Shown here in pieces: positions 2,287 through 9,267 of a DNA stretch of 38,389 bases. Source of the stretch: Enterobacteria phage SfI; sequence record JX509734. The stretch is one strand, 5' to 3'. The translations under genes were made by a program, and so were the position numbers. The notes below the pieces were generated by a model. It was given only the letters and a program-made list of their open reading frames with translations. It was not told where the DNA came from and made no database searches. Every line of letters starts with the position of its first letter. Position 1 is the stretch's first letter.

Positions 2287-2469
2287 ATGATCATGCTGAT
2301 TCTCGCGCCTCTGGTGGGCGTGCTGGGTGCGCTTTTGCTGGCATATGGTGCCTGGCTGATTTATCCCCCGGCGGGTTTTGTTGTTGCCGGGGCGTTGTGC
2401 CTGTTCTGGTCGTGGCTGGTAGCGCGATATCTCGATCGTACACAGCTGTCTGTTGGTGGAGGTAAATAG
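2287..2469 (+). CDS. Small hydrophobic protein (about 2 predicted TM helices), unknown function
   Basis: 60-aa ORF with GAGG RBS about 8 nt upstream; very hydrophobic sequence ([26 protein letters not shown]...); wedged between terL and portal. Confidence 0.4.
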
Positions 2470-3710
2470 TGTTCTTTTCGGGATTATTTCAACGAAAAAG
2501 TGACGCACCGGTGACCACGCCAGCAGAGCTGGCGGATGCCATCGGGTTGTCCTACGACACCTATACCGGAAAGCAGATCAGCAGTCAGCGGGCCATGCGA
2601 CTGACGGCGGTTTTTTCCTGCGTCAGAGTGCTGGCAGAGTCGGTCGGGATGTTGCCCTGCAATCTGTATCACCTGAACGGCAGCCTGAAGCAGAGAGCCA
2701 CCGGCGAACGTCTGCATAAACTGATCTCCACGCATCCCAATAGCTATATGACGCCGCAGGAGTTCTGGGAGCTGGTGGTCACCTGTCTGTGCCTGCGGGG
2801 AAATTTTTACGCCTACAAAGTGAAAGCATTTGGCGAAGTGGCTGAACTGCTGCCCGTCGATCCCGGTTGTGTGGTACCGAAGCTTAACAGTAGCTGGGAA
2901 CCGGTTTACCAGGTCACATTTCCGGACGGCTCCACGGATGTACTGAGCCAGGAAGATATCTGGCATGTGCGCACGCTGACGCTGGACGGTCTGGTGGGAC
3001 TGAATCCCATCGCCTATGCCCGCGAGGCAATATCGCTGGCGGCAGCGACCGAAGAGCACGGGGCCAGACTGTTCAGCAATGGCGCGGTGACGTCGGGTGT
3101 GTTGCGTACAGAGCAGACGCTGTCGGATCAGGCTTATGAGCGCCTGAAGAAAGATTTTGAGGAGCGTCACACCGGGCTTGGCAATGCTCACCGCCCGATG
3201 ATCCTTGAGATGGGGCTGGACTGGAAGTCGATGGCGTTGAACGCAGAGGACAGCCAGTTCCTGGAAACCCGCAAGTTTCAGCTTGAAGAAATCTGTCGTC
3301 TGTTCCGGGTGCCATTGCACATGGTGCAGAACACCGATCGCGCCACCTTCAACAATATCGAAGAACTGGGGCTCGGATTTATCAACTATTCACTGGTGCC
3401 GTATCTGACCCGCATCGAACAGCGGATCAACACCGGACTGGTACGAAAAAGTAAGCAGGGCGTTTATTACGCCAAATTTAACGCCGGGGCGTTACTGCGC
3501 GGGGATATGAAGTCCCGTTTTGAAGCCTACGCCACCGGGATTAACTGGGGAATTTACTCTCCCAATGACTGCCGCGACCTGGAAGATATGAATCCGCGTC
3601 CCGGTGGGAATGTCTATCTCACACCGATGAACATGACCACGAAACCCTCCGATGGCAGTAAAGCCGGTAAGCAGAAGGATAACGCCAATGCAGACGAAAC
3701 AACGTCTTGA
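2469..3710 (+). CDS. Portal protein (HK97 family)
   Basis: 413-aa ORF with GTG start preceded by GGAGG; length and position between TerL and prohead protease. Confidence 0.88.
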   Translation: MFFSGLFQRKSDAPVTTPAELADAIGLSYDTYTGKQISSQRAMRLTAVFSCVRVLAESVGMLPCNLYHLNGSLKQRATGERLHKLISTHPNSYMTPQEFWELVVTCLCLRGNFYAYKVKAFGEVAELLPVDPGCVVPKLNSSWEPVYQVTFPDGSTDVLSQEDIWHVRTLTLDGLVGLNPIAYAREAISLAAATEEHGARLFSNGAVTSGVLRTEQTLSDQAYERLKKDFEERHTGLGNAHRPMILEMGLDWKSMALNAEDSQFLETRKFQLEEICRLFRVPLHMVQNTDRATFNNIEELGLGFINYSLVPYLTRIEQRINTGLVRKSKQGVYYAKFNAGALLRGDMKSRFEAYATGINWGIYSPNDCRDLEDMNPRPGGNVYLTPMNMTTKPSDGSKAGKQKDNANADETTS

Positions 3711-4338
3711 TGTACCGCTGAGTCTGAAATCTGTCAGTGACTCCGGTGAGTTTGAAGGGTATGGCTCCGTCTTTGGTGTAAAGGACAGCCACGATGATGT
3801 GGTGATGTCCGGGGCATTTGCTGCTTCCCTGCGGGCGTGGAGTGACAGAAAAGCGTTACCTGCGCTGCTCTGGCAGCACCGCATGGATGAACCCATCGGT
3901 GTTTACACCGAAATGAAGGAAGACGATGTCGGGCTTTACGTCAGGGGACGGTTGCTTATTGATGATGATCCCCTCGCAAAACGCGCACATGCACACATGA
4001 AGGCCGGTTCGTTAACCGGCCTTTCTATTGGGTACGTCCTGAAAGACTGGGAATACGACCGGAGCAAAGAAGCCTTTCTGCTGAAAGAAATCGACCTCTG
4101 GGAAGTCAGCCTGGTGACGTTCCCGTCTAACGACGAGGCGCGGATCAGCGACGTCAAGAACGCACTGGCCCGCGGGGAAATCCCCGAACAGAAAAAAATC
4201 GAAAGAGTCCTGCGTGATGTCGGACTCTCCCGTACCCAGGCCAAAGCATTCATGGCCGGGGGCTATGGCGCACTGTCCCTGCGCGACGCTGAGGATGTGG
4301 GCTCTGCACTGAATGCACTGAAAAATCTGAACTTCTAA
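3652..4338 (+). CDS. Prohead maturation protease (HK97 gp4-like)
   Basis: 228-aa ORF between portal and major capsid; start could be the internal ATG near 3688 because 3652 overlaps the portal end. Confidence 0.8.
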   Translation: MAVKPVSRRITPMQTKQRLDVPLSLKSVSDSGEFEGYGSVFGVKDSHDDVVMSGAFAASLRAWSDRKALPALLWQHRMDEPIGVYTEMKEDDVGLYVRGRLLIDDDPLAKRAHAHMKAGSLTGLSIGYVLKDWEYDRSKEAFLLKEIDLWEVSLVTFPSNDEARISDVKNALARGEIPEQKKIERVLRDVGLSRTQAKAFMAGGYGALSLRDAEDVGSALNALKNLNF

Positions 4339-4352
4339 TCAGGAGAAATACG

Positions 4353-5558
4353 ATGGCGGTTGATATTAAAGATGTCGAACAGGTCGCGCAGGAGCTGCAG
4401 CAGAAGTTTGACGACTTCAAAGCAAAGAACGACAAGCGCGTGGATGCGATTGAGCAGGAAAAAGGCAAGCTTGCCGGGCAGGTGGAAACCCTGAACGGGA
4501 AACTCAGCGAGCTGGAAAATCTCAAAAGCGACCTTGAAAAAGAGCTGCTTGAGCTGAAACGTCCGGCAGGTGGTGCGCAAAATAAACTGGCCACCGAGCA
4601 TAAAGAGGCGTTTGTGGGCTTCCTGCGTAAAGGCCGTGAAGACGGTCTGCGCGATCTGGAGCGTAAGGCATTGCAGGTGGGTACCGATGAAGACGGTGGC
4701 TACGCCGTGCCGGAAGAACTGGATCGCAACATTCTTAACCTGCTGAAAGATGAAGTGGTGATGCGTCAGGAAGCCACGGTGATCACCGTTGGCGGTTCCG
4801 ACTACAAAAAACTGGTGAATCTGGGCGGTACGGCTTCCGGATGGGTGGGGGAAACGGATACGCGATCCCAGACTGCCACCTCCAGACTGGAGCTGATTGA
4901 ACCTCTCATGGGGGAAATTTACGGCAACCCGCAGGCTACCCAGAAAATGCTGGACGATGCCTTCTTCAACGTGGAGGCCTGGATCAACAGCGAGCTGGCA
5001 ACCGAATTTGCCGAACAGGAAGAAATTGCCTTTACCTCAGGCGATGGCACCAAGAAGCCGAAAGGGTTCCTGGCGTATGAATCCACTGATGAAACCGACA
5101 AGGTCCGGGCGTTCGGCAAACTTCAGCATATTGTATCCGGCGAAGCGACCGCGGTGACCGCAGACGCCATTATCAAACTGATTTACACGCTGCGTAAGGC
5201 ACACCGCACTGGCGCGAAGTTCATGATGAACAACAACAGCCTGTTTGCCATCCGTCTGCTGAAAGACACCGAGGGTAACTATCTGTGGCGTCCTGGGCTG
5301 GAACTGGGGCAGCCATCCTCTCTGGCGGGTTACGGTATCGCTGAAAACGAGCAGATGCCGGATATTGCCGCGGATGCGAAAGCCATTGCATTTGGTAACT
5401 TCAAACGGGGTTACACCATCGTTGACCGTATCGGTACCCGCATTCTTCGCGATCCGTACACCAATAAACCGTTTGTCGGTTTTTATACCACCAAGCGCAC
5501 CGGCGGCATGCTGGTCGATTCGCAGGCCATCAAACTGCTGAAGATTGCAGCGGCGTAA
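4353..5558 (+). CDS. Major capsid protein (HK97 fold) with N-terminal coiled-coil delta/scaffold domain
   Basis: 401-aa ORF; N-terminal about 100 aa is charged and coiled-coil-like (KLSELENLKSDLEKELLELK), as in HK97 gp5-type capsid precursors; follows the protease. Confidence 0.88.
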   Translation: MAVDIKDVEQVAQELQQKFDDFKAKNDKRVDAIEQEKGKLAGQVETLNGKLSELENLKSDLEKELLELKRPAGGAQNKLATEHKEAFVGFLRKGREDGLRDLERKALQVGTDEDGGYAVPEELDRNILNLLKDEVVMRQEATVITVGGSDYKKLVNLGGTASGWVGETDTRSQTATSRLELIEPLMGEIYGNPQATQKMLDDAFFNVEAWINSELATEFAEQEEIAFTSGDGTKKPKGFLAYESTDETDKVRAFGKLQHIVSGEATAVTADAIIKLIYTLRKAHRTGAKFMMNNNSLFAIRLLKDTEGNYLWRPGLELGQPSSLAGYGIAENEQMPDIAADAKAIAFGNFKRGYTIVDRIGTRILRDPYTNKPFVGFYTTKRTGGMLVDSQAIKLLKIAAA

Positions 5559-5565
5559 TCACTCA

Positions 5566-5585
5566 GGGGCGCGGAACCGCGCCCC
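5566..5585 (+). terminator. GC-rich stem-loop directly after the capsid gene (putative terminator or mRNA-stability hairpin)
   Basis: GGGGCGCG / CGCGCCCC 8-bp perfect stem with 4-nt loop, 8 nt after the capsid stop; the trailing U-tract is weak. Confidence 0.4.
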
Positions 5586-5607
5586 CTGTTCTGACGGGTG
5601 AAGAATC

Positions 5608-5808
5608 ATGATCCTGAAACAAGATCTGAAATGGTCACCGGACGGTATGCGTGTTGATGTCATTCGGGCCGGTGAGTATGACGACGGGACGCTTCCTGCC
5701 CGGGTGCAGGAGATTGCACTTCAGGCCGGGTTAGCAGAGCGCGGAACCAGTGCAAAAAGCAGTAAAGCGACAAAAGAGAAAAAAGCCACGACCAGTAAAG
5801 AGGGCTGA
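5608..5808 (+). CDS. Small hypothetical protein, Lys/Ser/Thr-rich C-terminus
   Basis: 66-aa ORF between capsid and connector genes; modest RBS (GGTGAAG). Confidence 0.35.
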   Translation: MILKQDLKWSPDGMRVDVIRAGEYDDGTLPARVQEIALQAGLAERGTSAKSSKATKEKKATTSKEG

Positions 5809-5810
5809 GT

Positions 5811-6163
5811 ATGCTTCTGACAATGGAAGAGATTAAAGCCCAACTCCGGCTGGATGAGGATTTCGATGCTGATGACGGCTGGATGAGGATTTCGATGCTG
5901 ATGCCCGCCATCTGCAACTGCTGGCCTGTGCGGCGCAAAAGCGGACGGAAACGTATCTGAACCGGAAGCTCTATGCTCCGGATGAAACCATTCCGGACAG
6001 CGATCCGGACGGGCTGCACCTGCCGGATGATATTCGTCTGGGGATGCTGATGCTTATCAGCCATTTTTACGAAAATCGCTCGTCGGTTACAGACGTTGAG
6101 AAAATGGAGTTGCCAATGAGCTTTAACTGGCTTGTCGGCCCGTACAGGTATTTCCCGCAATGA
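5811..6163 (+). pseudogene. Head-tail connector (gp6-like) gene disrupted by a 29-bp tandem duplication
   Basis: ATG at 5811 with GAGGG RBS. The 28-mer CGGCTGGATGAGGATTTCGATGCTGATG occurs at 5847-5874 and again at 5876-5903 (period 29). As written the frame stops at 5958-5960 (49 aa). Removing one copy gives a continuous gp6-like ORF (MLLTMEEIKAQLRLDEDFDAD...SFNWLVGPYRYFPQ) ending at 6163 with ATGA coupling to the next gene. Confidence 0.6.
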
Positions 6164-6570
6164 AAATTCGTCAGGCGCAGACCAGCGCAACCTACATTCT
6201 GCCGGACCCCGGTGAACTGAATAAACGCGTCCTGATCCGCCAGCGGGTGGATATGCCCGCGGATAACTTTGGCGTGGAGCCTCAATACCCGGTTGCGTTC
6301 CGGACATGGGCGAAGGTTGTCCAGACCAGTGCCACCACCTGGCAGGAAACCGCGCAGACCGGGGACGCCATCACCCATTACATCACCATTCGTTACCGCC
6401 GGGGGATCACCGCTGATTATGAGGTGGTCTGCGGTGACAGTGTGTACCGGGTGAAACGTCAGCGCGATCTGAACGGGGCGCGGCGCTTTCTGCTGCTGGA
6501 GTGTACGGAGCTGGGCGAATGTAGGCAGAGTCACGGAGGCAACAATGACGACTTCCTTTTTGCACGTTGA
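6160..6570 (+). CDS. Head closure / head-tail joining protein
   Basis: 136-aa ORF, ATGA-coupled to the connector frame; position in the head-tail adaptor block. Confidence 0.65.
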   Translation: MKIRQAQTSATYILPDPGELNKRVLIRQRVDMPADNFGVEPQYPVAFRTWAKVVQTSATTWQETAQTGDAITHYITIRYRRGITADYEVVCGDSVYRVKRQRDLNGARRFLLLECTELGECRQSHGGNNDDFLFAR

Positions 6571-7051
6571 TTTTCAGCAGCCCGCGGAGATGCGCTTTAA
6601 CCGCGCCCGTGTCCGGCGGGCGTTTGTCACGATTGGTCAGCGTCATATGCGTGATGCCCGTCGGCTGGTGATGCGCCGTGCGCGGTCGGCACCGGGTGAA
6701 AACCCCGGTTATCAGACCGGACGCCTGGCTCGTTCGATTGGTTACATGGTACCCAGAGCCAGTAAACATCGCCCCGGTTTTATGGCACGTATAGCCCCTA
6801 ACCAGCGTAATGGAGAGGGAAACCGCCGTATCACCGGTGATTTTTATCCGGCTTTTTTGTTCTATGGCGTGAGGCGAGGGGCAAAGCGTCGTCGCAGCCA
6901 TCATCGTGGTGCATCCGGTGGCAGCGGCTGGCGACTGGCTCCACGTAATAACTTCATGGTGGAAACGCTTGAAAAGAACCGCAGCTGGACACGCTATTTT
7001 CTGGCGCGGGAATTGCGTAAATCACTGAAGCCGGAGCGACGACACAGATGA
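6545..7051 (+). CDS. Tail component, HK97 gp10-like (basic C-terminus)
   Basis: 168-aa ORF in the adaptor block; family assignment from position and composition only. Confidence 0.55.
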   Translation: MTTSFLHVDFQQPAEMRFNRARVRRAFVTIGQRHMRDARRLVMRRARSAPGENPGYQTGRLARSIGYMVPRASKHRPGFMARIAPNQRNGEGNRRITGDFYPAFLFYGVRRGAKRRRSHHRGASGGSGWRLAPRNNFMVETLEKNRSWTRYFLARELRKSLKPERRHR

Positions 7052-7608
7052 AACTGACGCCTGTTATTGCTGCACTGCGTGCCCGCTGTCCGTATTTTGA
7101 AAACCGGGTGGCAGGCGCGGCCCAGTTCAAAAATCTGCCGGAGGTCGGAAAGCTGAGACTCCCGGCGGCGTATGTGGTACCGGGTGATGACTCTCCGGGA
7201 GAAAACAAAAGCCAGACCGACTACTGGCAGGAGCTGAAAGAGGGCTTCTCCGTGGTTGTCATACTGAGTAACGGGCGTGATGAGCGCGGTCAGTTTGCCT
7301 CGTATGATGTGGTGGACGATGTCCGGCAGATGCTCTTTAAGGCTCTGCTGGGCTGGAACCCGGAGGCGTGCGGTAACCCGATTACCTATGACGGCGGCAC
7401 GCTGCTGGATCTGAATCGTCATGAGCTGATTTATCAGTTCGATTTTTCGGTCATCAGCGAGCTGACTGAAGACGATACCCGCCAGCAGGATGATCTGAAC
7501 AGTCTGGATGAACTGCAAACGCTGGCGATTGATGTTGATTATCTCGAGCCCGGTAACGGGCCTGACGGCGATATCGAACATCACACCGAAATAACCCTTC
7601 CTTCCTGA
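7048..7608 (+). CDS. Neck / tail-completion protein, acidic C-terminus
   Basis: 186-aa ORF overlapping the previous stop by 4 nt; precedes the sheath module. Confidence 0.5.
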   Translation: MKLTPVIAALRARCPYFENRVAGAAQFKNLPEVGKLRLPAAYVVPGDDSPGENKSQTDYWQELKEGFSVVVILSNGRDERGQFASYDVVDDVRQMLFKALLGWNPEACGNPITYDGGTLLDLNRHELIYQFDFSVISELTEDDTRQQDDLNSLDELQTLAIDVDYLEPGNGPDGDIEHHTEITLPS

Positions 7609-7616
7609 GGATCCTC

Positions 7617-7787
7617 ATGTTTGTCAAACCTGTTAAAGGGCGGTCAGTTCCTGACCCTGCCCGCGGCGACCTTTTGCCCGCCGAGGGGCGAAATGTTGAT
7701 GAGAACAACTACTGGCTGCGCCGTGAAGCAGCGGGTGATATCCGGCGCGTGAATAAAAAGGTGAATACCGATGACGATAAGCTTTAA
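7617..7787 (+). CDS. Small protein preceding the tail sheath gene (DUF2635-like)
   Basis: 56-aa ORF (MFVKPVKGRSVPDPARGDLLPAEG...) with GAGGA RBS; overlaps the sheath start; not in the ORF track because it is under 60 aa. Confidence 0.45.
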   Translation: MFVKPVKGRSVPDPARGDLLPAEGRNVDENNYWLRREAAGDIRRVNKKVNTDDDKL

Positions 7788-9267
7788 CACCATTCCGTCG
7801 AATACGCTGGTTCCGTTGTTTTATGCGGAAATGGATAACCAGGCGGCGAATACTGCACAGGACAGCGGAGCATCGCTGCTGATTGGTCATGCCAATAACG
7901 GTGCAGAGATTGTTGCCAACAGTCTGGTGCTGATGCCATCGGCAGACTATGCACGCCAGATTTGTGGTGCGGGAAGTCAGCTGGCGCGTATGGTCGAGGC
8001 TTATCGCCAGACCGACCCGTTTGGTGAACTGTATGTGATTGCCGTTCCTGAATCCACGGGCGCGGCGGCAACAGTTACGCTGACGGTGACCGGCGCGGCA
8101 ACCGAAACCGGCACGGTGAATGTTTATGTGGGACGTACCCGCGTGCAGGCACCGGTGACCAACGGCGATAACGTCGCGACGATTGCCAGCAGTATCCAGG
8201 ATGCCATCAATGCCGTTCCGACCCTGCCGTTTACGGCTTCATCTTCGGCAGGCGTGGTCACACTGACCGCGCGTCATAAGGGGCTTTGCGGGAATGAAAT
8301 TCCTGTCAGCCTCAATTACTACGGCTTTGGTGGGGGCGAAGTGCTGCCAGCGGGCGTACAGATTGCCGTGGCGACGGGTACCGCCGGAACGGGCGCTCCT
8401 GTTCTCACCGGCGCGGTGGCTGCAATGGCGGATGAGCCGTTTGATTATATCGGCCTGCCGTTCAACGACACGGCCTCCGTTAACACGCTGGTGACCGAGA
8501 TGAACGATACCAGCGGTCGCTGGAGCTATGCGCGTCAGCTGTATGGTCATGTGTACACGGCAAAGATCGGCACGCTGTCAGAACTGGTGACCGCAGGTGA
8601 CCAGTTTAACCAGCAGCACATTACCCTGGCGGGATACGAAAAAGAGACCCAGACGCCTGCCGACGAGCTGGCGGCAAGCCGTACCGCCCGCGCAGCGGTG
8701 TTTATTCGCAACGATCCGGCACGTCCCACGCAGACCGGTGAGCTGGTGGGTATGCTGCCTGCGCCGAAGGGGAAACGGTTCACGATGACCGAACAACAGA
8801 CCCTGCTGTCTCATGGCGTGGCAACGGCGTATGTCGAAAGCGGGGTGCTGCGCATTCAGCGTGATGTCACCACGTACAGGAAAAACGCTTACGGTGTTGC
8901 GGATAACAGCTACCTCGACAGCGAGACGCTGCATACCAGCGCGTATGTACTGCGCAAACTGAAATCCGTCATTACCAGTAAGTACGGGCGTCACAAGCTT
9001 GCCAGCGACGGTACCCGCTTTGGTCCCGGTCAGGCGATTGTCACCCCGGCGGTGATCAAAGGGGAACTGCTGGCAACCTACCGTCAGCTTGAGCGTGCGG
9101 GGATCGTGGAAAACTACGAACTTTTTAAGCAGTACCTGGTTGTGGAGCGTGATGCCAGCGATCCGAACCGCCTGAACACGCTGTTCCCGCCTGACTATGT
9201 TAACCAGTTGCGTGTCTTTGCCGTGGTTAACCAGTTCCGTCTTCAGTATTCAGAGGAGTCCGCATAA
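7771..9267 (+). CDS. Contractile tail sheath protein (Mu gpL-like)
   Basis: 498-aa ORF followed immediately by a tube-sized ORF; sheath-like size and composition. Confidence 0.82.
   Translation: MTISFNTIPSNTLVPLFYAEMDNQAANTAQDSGASLLIGHANNGAEIVANSLVLMPSADYARQICGAGSQLARMVEAYRQTDPFGELYVIAVPESTGAAATVTLTVTGAATETGTVNVYVGRTRVQAPVTNGDNVATIASSIQDAINAVPTLPFTASSSAGVVTLTARHKGLCGNEIPVSLNYYGFGGGEVLPAGVQIAVATGTAGTGAPVLTGAVAAMADEPFDYIGLPFNDTASVNTLVTEMNDTSGRWSYARQLYGHVYTAKIGTLSELVTAGDQFNQQHITLAGYEKETQTPADELAASRTARAAVFIRNDPARPTQTGELVGMLPAPKGKRFTMTEQQTLLSHGVATAYVESGVLRIQRDVTTYRKNAYGVADNSYLDSETLHTSAYVLRKLKSVITSKYGRHKLASDGTRFGPGQAIVTPAVIKGELLATYRQLERAGIVENYELFKQYLVVERDASDPNRLNTLFPPDYVNQLRVFAVVNQFRLQYSEESA

Follow-up and report, generated by a model that had tools for sequence, protein, structure and literature searches.

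Here we describe the locus surrounding a small open reading frame (ORF) of 66 codons in Enterobacteria phage SfI (sequence record JX509734), carried on a stretch of DNA of 38,389 nucleotides that was analysed at its full length and that we refer to throughout as the window. The ORF occupies positions 5608-5808 on the plus strand (ATG at 5608, TGA at 5806-5808), coordinates and a length of 66 amino acids that are identical to those given for it in the original prediction; likewise, the placement claimed there, between a post-capsid hairpin and the connector gene, holds true, with the hairpin at 5566-5585 upstream and the ATG of the adaptor gene at 5811 downstream. Its product, MILKQDLKWSPDGMRVDVIRAGEYDDGTLPARVQEIALQAGLAERGTSAKSSKATKEKKATTSKEG, has a mass of 7.1 kDa, with predicted tryptic peptides that include AGEYDDGTLPAR and VQEIALQAGLAER. 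The window itself belongs to a temperate phage of the SfII/SfIV/ST64B-like type, combining an HK97-type head module with a Mu-like contractile tail, and is 98% identical to Shigella phage SfII over its first 22.7 kb. Read 5' to 3', the genes are those for TerL (542-2275), a 60-amino-acid membrane ORF, the portal (2469-3710), an S78 protease, the major capsid protein (4353-5558), the 66-codon ORF (5608-5808), the head-tail adaptor Ad1 (from 5811) and the head closure protein Hc1 (6160-6570), with the neck, sheath and tube genes downstream of Hc1. From the comparisons set out below, we propose that the small gene probably encodes a dispensable head-assembly helper, equipped with a DNA-contacting tail.

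The ORF is a real and conserved small phage gene, one that has already been catalogued, but recorded only as a hypothetical protein. Its product matches PHROG 1020 (function unknown) with an E-value of 9.3e-44, residues 1-66 falling on positions 1-66 of the 66 in the profile, and the same profile is matched by all 19 of a diverse set of homologues. Both PHROG 1020 and PHROG 21989 are made up of hypothetical proteins from SfII-, SfIV- and ST64B-like phages and prophages, with no function attached to either. SfII_07 (hypothetical protein; 97% identical to the window ORF product) and Sb7 of ST64B (sb7, hypothetical protein; 80% identical) lie in the same slot between capsid and Ad1 genes and represent the same gene, which RefSeq E. 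coli genomes likewise annotate as a hypothetical protein. Scans of the product against Pfam, NCBIfam and PADLOC returned no match, including none to a defence system with PADLOC, and Pfam was equally silent on the 19 homologues. In the RefSeq record for SfIV (NC_022749), the 66-codon ORF is intact, at 1708-1908 of the extracted locus, yet unannotated, unlike its counterparts in SfII and ST64B.

Length is uninformative here, dozens of ORFs of similar size being present in the window, such that one of 66 codons falls within chance expectation; the status of this one as a gene comes instead from its conservation. An intact ORF of 66 amino acids was found at the same position in 80/80 loci from IMG/VR, these being the best (closest, 97-100% identical) of 480 stretches that encode a relative, and three of the contigs encode the identical protein. 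Of 5426 complete E. coli genomes, 1268 have a match to the 801-bp region around the ORF, 840 of these at a coverage of at least 80%. Across eight lineages, the ratio of non-synonymous to synonymous substitution rates (dN/dS) lies between 0.03 and 0.35 in 22 of 28 pairwise comparisons, dS being saturated in the other six, and third codon positions take most of the substitutions within the first 40 aligned codons, at what is synonymous saturation between these lineages. At the protein level, the motif is kept at 23-60% identity across Enterobacterales and Pseudomonas, despite the divergence of the underlying DNA. Conservation in related genomes, which the original prediction had put forward as a check, is therefore evident in 12 compared loci, eight lineages and 80/80 IMG/VR contigs, and its suggestion that the ORF might be non-coding is refuted by the low dN/dS and by synteny in 12/12 loci and 80/80 viral contigs; we dismiss it on the combined grounds of purifying selection and strict synteny. 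Two other interpretations of the region were considered and rejected: an antisense ORF at 5660-6307, the length of which is not conserved in SfIV, and a read-through or frameshift fusion to the capsid protein, as the ORF lies in the +1 frame relative to the capsid gene, with an in-frame TGA at 5599-5601 ahead of its ATG.

The company that the gene keeps is informative. In each of 12 loci compared (from Escherichia, Shigella, Salmonella, Edwardsiella, Klebsiella, Serratia, Symbiopectobacterium, Lonsdalea and Yersinia), a capsid gene 79-100% identical to that of the window lies directly upstream, while the identity of the downstream adaptor ranges from 36 to 100%. The order of capsid, small gene and gp6-like adaptor is kept in 12/12 loci, in 80/80 viral contigs and in further contigs recognised from precomputed Pfam calls, and the gene is found with siphovirus tails (phi467 and a metagenomic contig) as well as with myovirus tails (the window and Yersinia). 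SfV, with an adaptor 68%, an Hc1 97% and a capsid only 25% identical to those of the window, does not have the small ORF. By such comparisons, the small gene belongs to the head module and is co-inherited with one capsid clade, rather than with the neck or tail.

A single phage departs from this rule. The capsid protein of phiP27 is 88% identical to that of the window, yet its gene runs straight into an SfV-like intergenic region and adaptor gene, leaving no small gene; among phage records with a capsid at least 78% identical and with the slot included, phiP27 is the only one without it. It follows that the small gene is either dispensable or replaceable, and to us it looks dispensable. The pattern is also compatible with a non-essential decoration protein and, more broadly, the 'accessory protein' offered as one option in the original prediction fits a head-module gene that goes with one capsid clade and is missing from phiP27.

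A mosaic junction in phi467 falls inside the small gene itself, at around 5660-5690 (codons ~18-27). From the capsid gene to about codon 20 of the small gene, phi467 and the window are 93-100% identical; beyond that point, identity drops to 40-60%, such that the half of the gene that encodes a predicted beta-hairpin has remained linked to the capsid gene. Recombination between head and neck/tail modules may use the conserved 5' part of the small gene as its crossover site. In the same vein, divergence of the N-terminal, beta-hairpin half tracks that of the capsid (r = 0.84), whereas divergence of the helix/tail half tracks that of the adaptor, albeit with a Pearson coefficient of 0.75 and a Spearman coefficient of 0.25.

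With respect to the protein, our models and alignments (the latter drawn from homologues of 63-95 amino acids, 19 of which formed the alignment supplied to AlphaFold2) describe a bipartite molecule, in which an acidic beta-beta-alpha domain of ~45 amino acids is predicted to be followed by a flexible spacer and a basic C-terminal tail. The N-domain (5608-5742, +; codons 1-45) is predicted to be globular, with a beta-hairpin around a WSPDG turn, then a helix LPARVQEIALQAGL; the AlphaFold2 model has predicted local distance difference test (pLDDT) scores of 84-87 for residues 1-40, short strands to either side of the turn, and a helix at residues 31-40. Seven of its residues are invariant among homologues (W9, P11, G13, G22, R32, I36 and A37), within a consensus of LKWSPDGxRVExIxAGEY..LPxRAxEIAxQLGI, and codons 1 to ~26 are near-invariant in E. 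coli, Shigella and Salmonella relatives. The remainder (5743-5808, +; codons 46-66 plus stop) is predicted to be a disordered basic tail, and the richness in Lys, Ser and Thr that had been claimed for it is confirmed, its last 21 residues being rich in Lys/Ser/Thr/Ala, with a net charge of +4. Past residue 45, pLDDT averages ~50 in the alignment-based model, falling below 50 at residues 48-54, and an earlier AlphaFold model had placed all of residues 46-66 below 50. Between the N-domain and the C-terminus of homologues sits a linker of highly variable length (12-49 amino acids) and of variable, biased composition, often rich in Pro/Glu; across 94 homologues, the tail likewise spans 12-49 amino acids of variable sequence, the last eight residues of which carry a mean net charge of +2.2, and the basic C-termini take forms such as KKxKK, TKRGKTK and NKRGEGK.

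Searches with the predicted N-domain against structure collections, including the PDB, gave nothing significant, and a sequence-profile search of the PDB returned only chance matches to the WSPDG motif (E >= 0.07). Exhaustive phmmer searches did produce matches to large Big_2, immunoglobulin (I-set) and PD40/WD40 repeat proteins, with E-values down to 1e-13, but these were rejected as homologues, as their scores build up from many copies of a short beta-hairpin motif, each contributing 5-7 bits; in Pfam, the ORF product has no match to PD40/WD40, Big_2 or I-set domains.

The most suggestive relatives come from Pseudomonas, where phages with capsids 60-63% identical to that of the window carry a small ORF in the same slot. 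Orthologous small proteins are encoded by vB_PaeS-D14E (DBA08393, annotated as 'HeH/LEM domain protein') and by prophages of P. putida and P. donghuensis, in the order TerL, portal, S78 protease, capsid (63% identical to the window's), small gene, connector and HCP. The N-domains of the Pseudomonas and window families align by hhalign with 90% probability (E 1.5e-6, over 48 columns), from which we conclude that they are homologous. What follows the N-domain in Pseudomonas takes one of two forms, being either a short Lys/Arg/Pro-rich tail, much like that of the window protein, or an HeH/LEM domain (PF12949), which scores 32.7 bits over residues 56-89 against a gathering score of 28.9, and which precomputed calls place on 22/33 matches. 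The HeH form sometimes carries an additional insert of ~50 amino acids, and the window protein does not have the HeH domain. HeH, SAP and LEM motifs are nucleic-acid-binding modules. Exchange of a basic tail for an HeH domain at an orthologous position therefore leads us to infer that the tail contacts DNA; it suggests that the basic tail of the window protein binds nucleic acid, and this interchange is the best available clue to such a contact.

Upstream, a G+C-rich stem-loop (5566-5585, +) directly follows the capsid stop codon, consisting of a perfect 9-bp inverted repeat (5566-5574/5577-5585; arms GGGGCGCGG-AA-CCGCGCCCC). Its downstream tail, CTGTTCTG, is poor in T and fails the T-run criterion of a terminator scan, which makes no call at this hairpin, while T-rich tails follow the hairpin in some relatives (Yersinia, TTTCTTTT; a metagenomic contig, L015, ATTTTT). 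All related loci, along with HK97, have a stable tetraloop hairpin of different sequence at the same post-capsid site, with free energies of folding of -12 to -22 kcal/mol; a wider region of 76 nucleotides (5550-5625) folds no better than shuffled sequence (z -0.42). The hairpin is likely to act as a 3'-stabiliser of mRNA or as a partial terminator and, lying 3' of it, the small gene is downstream of any attenuating or stabilising effect.

A purine-rich Shine-Dalgarno (SD)-like motif, GGGTGAAG (5596-5603, +), precedes the small gene, with 6 nucleotides between GGTGA and the ATG; most lineages have such a motif 5-9 nucleotides before the start, often in a stronger form (GGAGG, GAGGTG or AGGAG). 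At the other end, the junction with the adaptor gene (5800-5813, +) is tight: the adaptor SD, GAGGG (5800-5804), lies within the small ORF, whose TGA (5806-5808) is separated by 2 nucleotides from the adaptor ATG (5811-5813). The junction sequence, TGAGTATG, is shared by 79/80 viral contigs and, in two other lineages, the two genes overlap through an ATGA. A 2-nucleotide stop/start gap with an internal SD is a layout typical of translational coupling, here to the adaptor gene. In four more distant lineages (Symbiopectobacterium, Serratia, Lonsdalea and a contig labelled 'Martelella'; L010-L013), a second hairpin with a clear T-run (e.g. CCCGATTCGTCGGGTTTTGTTTG) follows the small ORF, such that two terminator-like hairpins bracket the gene and replace the coupling to the adaptor. 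Seen across lineages, these arrangements of hairpin and coupling give no clear stoichiometric signal.

The adaptor gene of the window (Ad1, gp6-like; 5811-6163, +) is itself disrupted by a tandem duplication of 29 bp (5847-5875/5876-5904; unit CGGCTGGATGAGGATTTCGATGCTGATGA/C), the resulting frameshift leaving an ORF of 49 amino acids (5811-5960); deletion of one copy in silico restores an Ad1 of 107 amino acids. None of the 842 matching E. coli records has the duplication, nor do SfII, SfIV, ST64B or any of 80 IMG/VR contigs. Being both private and frameshifting, it marks this copy of the phage either as a defective prophage, impaired in head completion, or as containing a sequence error.

The capsid protein (401 amino acids; 4353-5558, +) has the HK97 fold, with an N-terminal coiled-coil delta domain, and matches Pfam Phage_capsid with an E-value of 3.8e-79. 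Its nearest solved relative is the capsid of RcGTA, the Rhodobacter gene-transfer agent (6TB9; E 5e-76), and the cf-PICI capsid (9GYI) is also related. In alignment with HK97, the segment containing the crosslinking residues N356/E363 is absent from the window capsid; this, taken with its nearest solved relatives, indicates a shell that is probably not crosslinked into chainmail.

We are thus concerned with a gene that is coding, conserved, linked to its capsid and resident in the head module, whose product is bipartite, and which the natural relative phiP27 does without. How it might act is a matter on which we are more guarded: the family-level design is bipartite, with a suggestive relative in which the tail is swapped for HeH, and from this the function is inferred. 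The reading that we favour, tentatively and with slightly less than even confidence, is that of a genuine head-morphogenesis gene, encoding a non-essential head-DNA 'tether' akin to gpFI of phage lambda. Under this proposal, the basic tail would contact DNA through non-specific electrostatics, as the HeH swap implies, and the N-domain, for which the indications are weaker, would dock onto the capsid or prohead shell. By extension, and again on weaker indications, the protein might serve as a packaging chaperone like gpFI, bridging the terminase-DNA complex and the prohead; another possibility is that it simply stays with the head, as a minor accessory in contact with DNA.

Several considerations pull in the opposite direction. 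Homology to gpFI receives no support from hhalign, where the probability is 0.4% with one alignment of the family (A2) and 0.2% with another (A6), nor from Pfam, where PF14000 (Packaging_FI) matches neither the window protein nor any of the 19 homologues. The order of the two modules would also be reversed, the head-binding domain of gpFI reportedly being the C-terminal one. A Pfam scan finds no match to an HeH or SAP profile in the window protein, and a Lys-rich tail could just as well have RNA, lipopolysaccharide or the acidic surface of a protein as its ligand. Proximity, along with a single recombination junction, can account for the linkage of the N-terminal half to the capsid and of the C-terminal half to the adaptor, with no need for contact between proteins, and translational coupling to the adaptor gene could point to a role connected with the neck. 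Finally, the searchable literature yielded no virion proteome for SfII, SfIV, ST64B or phi467, and nothing usable on the function of the small HeH proteins.

It is also conceivable, though we think it unlikely, that the protein is a decoration or 'cement' protein, with the N-domain bound in near-stoichiometric amounts to the outside of the mature shell and the basic tail directed outwards, either to stabilise a non-crosslinked shell or to stick to anionic cell surfaces. Co-inheritance of the gene with one capsid clade would suit such a role, as would a capsid that lacks the N356/E363 segment and whose solved relative is wholly non-covalent, making additional stabilisation conceivable; the variable Pro/Glu-rich spacers also resemble exposed linkers. 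Very small decoration proteins do exist, as exemplified by SPP1 gp12 and T4 Soc, and some small head decoration proteins are non-essential. With these two and with lambda gpD, the window protein shares a small size, a location in the head module and linkage to the capsid, but they have a compact trimeric fold, where it has a predicted disordered basic tail, and neither sequence nor fold searches (PHROG, Pfam, NCBIfam, PDB profiles and fold comparison) reveal similarity to any decoration family. Moreover, the gene follows the post-capsid hairpin and is coupled to that of an adaptor present in 12 copies, and so is not placed for expression at the level of the capsid; phiP27 does without it despite a capsid that is 88% identical, and no decoration protein is required by the related capsids of RcGTA and cf-PICI. 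The exchange of tail for HeH is hard to square with an outward-facing cement, and it is this exchangeable C-terminal module that, for us, points towards a DNA-contacting helper in preference to one that reinforces the shell.

Less probable again is an accessory of the neck or portal vertex, acting either as a chaperone for the adaptor or as a holder for the end of the DNA at the portal once packaging is complete, and produced in equimolar amounts through translational coupling. The 2-nucleotide gap between stop and start, found in the window and in 79/80 close relatives, the ATGA overlap in two other lineages and the adaptor SD inside the ORF are all in keeping with this, and a basic or HeH tail could hold a DNA end. 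Saying this, SfV and phiP27 have homologous adaptors and no small gene, the small gene is found alongside adaptors that are merely 36-48% identical to each other, and a T-run hairpin intervenes between the two genes in four lineages. The correlation between divergence of the helix/tail half and that of the adaptor, which would also fit (but for which the Spearman coefficient is so much lower than Pearson's), is what would be expected of simple linkage.

We regard as improbable a role outside assembly altogether, with the product acting as a nucleic-acid-binding regulator or 'moron', be it a binder of late-transcript RNA or a factor expressed in the lysogen from a permissive slot. The kinship of HeH motifs with the N-terminal, RNA-binding domain of Rho lends such a role some appeal, along with the two hairpins that bracket the gene in four lineages and its dispensability in phiP27. 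The G+C content of third codon positions is also lower in the small gene (0.52) than in its neighbours (0.54-0.69), but this is accounted for by the Lys codons of the tail. A promoter/terminator scan of the window finds no promoter-like site in 4300-7800, the defence-system search was negative, and the constancy of slot, orientation and capsid clade in 12/12 loci and 80/80 viral contigs also speaks against such a role. The idea that the ORF is a chance frame, in what is merely an untranslated spacer carrying a terminator for the capsid gene and a ribosome-binding site for the adaptor, can be set aside as having next to no likelihood: frequent chance ORFs of this size, an unannotated copy in RefSeq SfIV and the lack of a Pfam or NCBIfam family speak for it, but not in the face of a dN/dS well below 1 with saturated synonymous change, a protein motif conserved across Enterobacterales and Pseudomonas, conserved SD-like motifs, an ORF intact in 80/80 contigs, and a scan of both strands of the region in which no Rfam family reached its gathering score.

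Two further observations concern the surrounding DNA and database records. Between the TerL and portal genes, the ORF of 60 amino acids (2287-2469, +) is predicted to encode a two-helix membrane protein, which has no PADLOC match. The ORF is conserved at this position in divergent relatives (L015, L016 and L018), an odd site for a membrane protein. Separately, enterobacterial head genes of the ST64B type are carried by OR844966.1 ('Enterococcus phage Efm 3-10', 1429 bp), a record assigned to a Gram-positive host, and by a 'Martelella alba' scaffold (L011), assigned to an alphaproteobacterium; both are probably mislabelled or contaminated.

The original prediction had described the slot between capsid and connector genes as usually empty in HK97-type heads, which is correct only in part: it stands for HK97, SfV and phiP27 but not for many other phages, among them lambda, D14E, Bcep176 and a Streptococcus phage, in all of which the slot is occupied. 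The last of these, which is unrelated, has a small HeH/LEM protein encoded between the capsid and gp6-like connector genes (PMC10221047), and gpFI-like proteins encoded after the capsid gene have been reported in other phages (PMC4493119). In Burkholderia phage Bcep176, gp75 is an ORF of 54 amino acids with the same slot and layout, ending in KKPTAPKK; homology to the window family is unsupported (hhalign 2.5%) and was rejected.

We further raise the possibility, a doubtful one in our own estimation, that, in many phages of the HK97 type, the capsid-adaptor slot is home to a class of head-DNA tethers not recognised so far, functional analogues of gpFI that would combine a new capsid-docking fold of ~45 residues with interchangeable DNA-binding ends (basic tail or HeH). 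PHROG 1020 would then represent the class in enterobacteria, where about one complete E. coli genome in four has it. The gene is in any case very common (1268/5426 complete E. coli genomes by the surrounding region, and 480 IMG/VR stretches), yet it has no functional annotation anywhere. Should the product indeed be a gpFI-like helper or tether, accessory packaging chaperones would be general among temperate phages of the HK97 type, including the serotype-converting phages of Shigella and ST64B of Salmonella, and a protein of 7 kDa would offer an accessible way into the question of how proheads are found by DNA-terminase complexes. A merely dispensable decoration protein or filler would have no such consequence, and the ORF would stay one more among the small conserved ORFs of phages.

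Finally, the favoured reading of a head-DNA tether invites a closer comparison with lambda gpFI (PF14000, DNA packaging chaperone FI; 2LSM). The lambda gene order, E-FI-FII, which places FI between the major capsid gene and the head-tail joining genes, parallels the capsid-ORF-adaptor order of the window. Both proteins are small and built from two modules, gpFI with a long flexible acidic linker between them, the two-module layout of the window protein being a predicted one. In lambda, gpFI bridges the prohead or capsid and the terminase-DNA complex, with one module on the head and the other on the terminase-DNA side, and it is an auxiliary factor, not a core component, which can be bypassed through changes in either the capsid or the terminase genes (PMC13595911). 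The N-terminal region of gpFI (FI gene at 1503-1901 of locus L014) has a sub-threshold Pfam match to SAP (18.3 bits, below the cutoff of 23.9; E 0.0018), which hints at a possible HeH/SAP-like DNA-side module in gpFI too. The differences are equally clear, in that gpFI is twice as long as the window protein, the capsids belong to different families (lambda E-type versus HK97/RcGTA-type), and fold searches of the PDB with the predicted N-domain find no match to the C-terminal domain of gpFI (2LSM); by sequence and fold, the window family is not a member of the gpFI family. As an analogue in function, without homology, gpFI nonetheless appears to be the best available and, given a shared position, size, modularity and capsid linkage, together with a presumptive contact with DNA and dispensability, a 'gpFI-like head-DNA tether' would be the most economical mechanism for the small protein of SfI.

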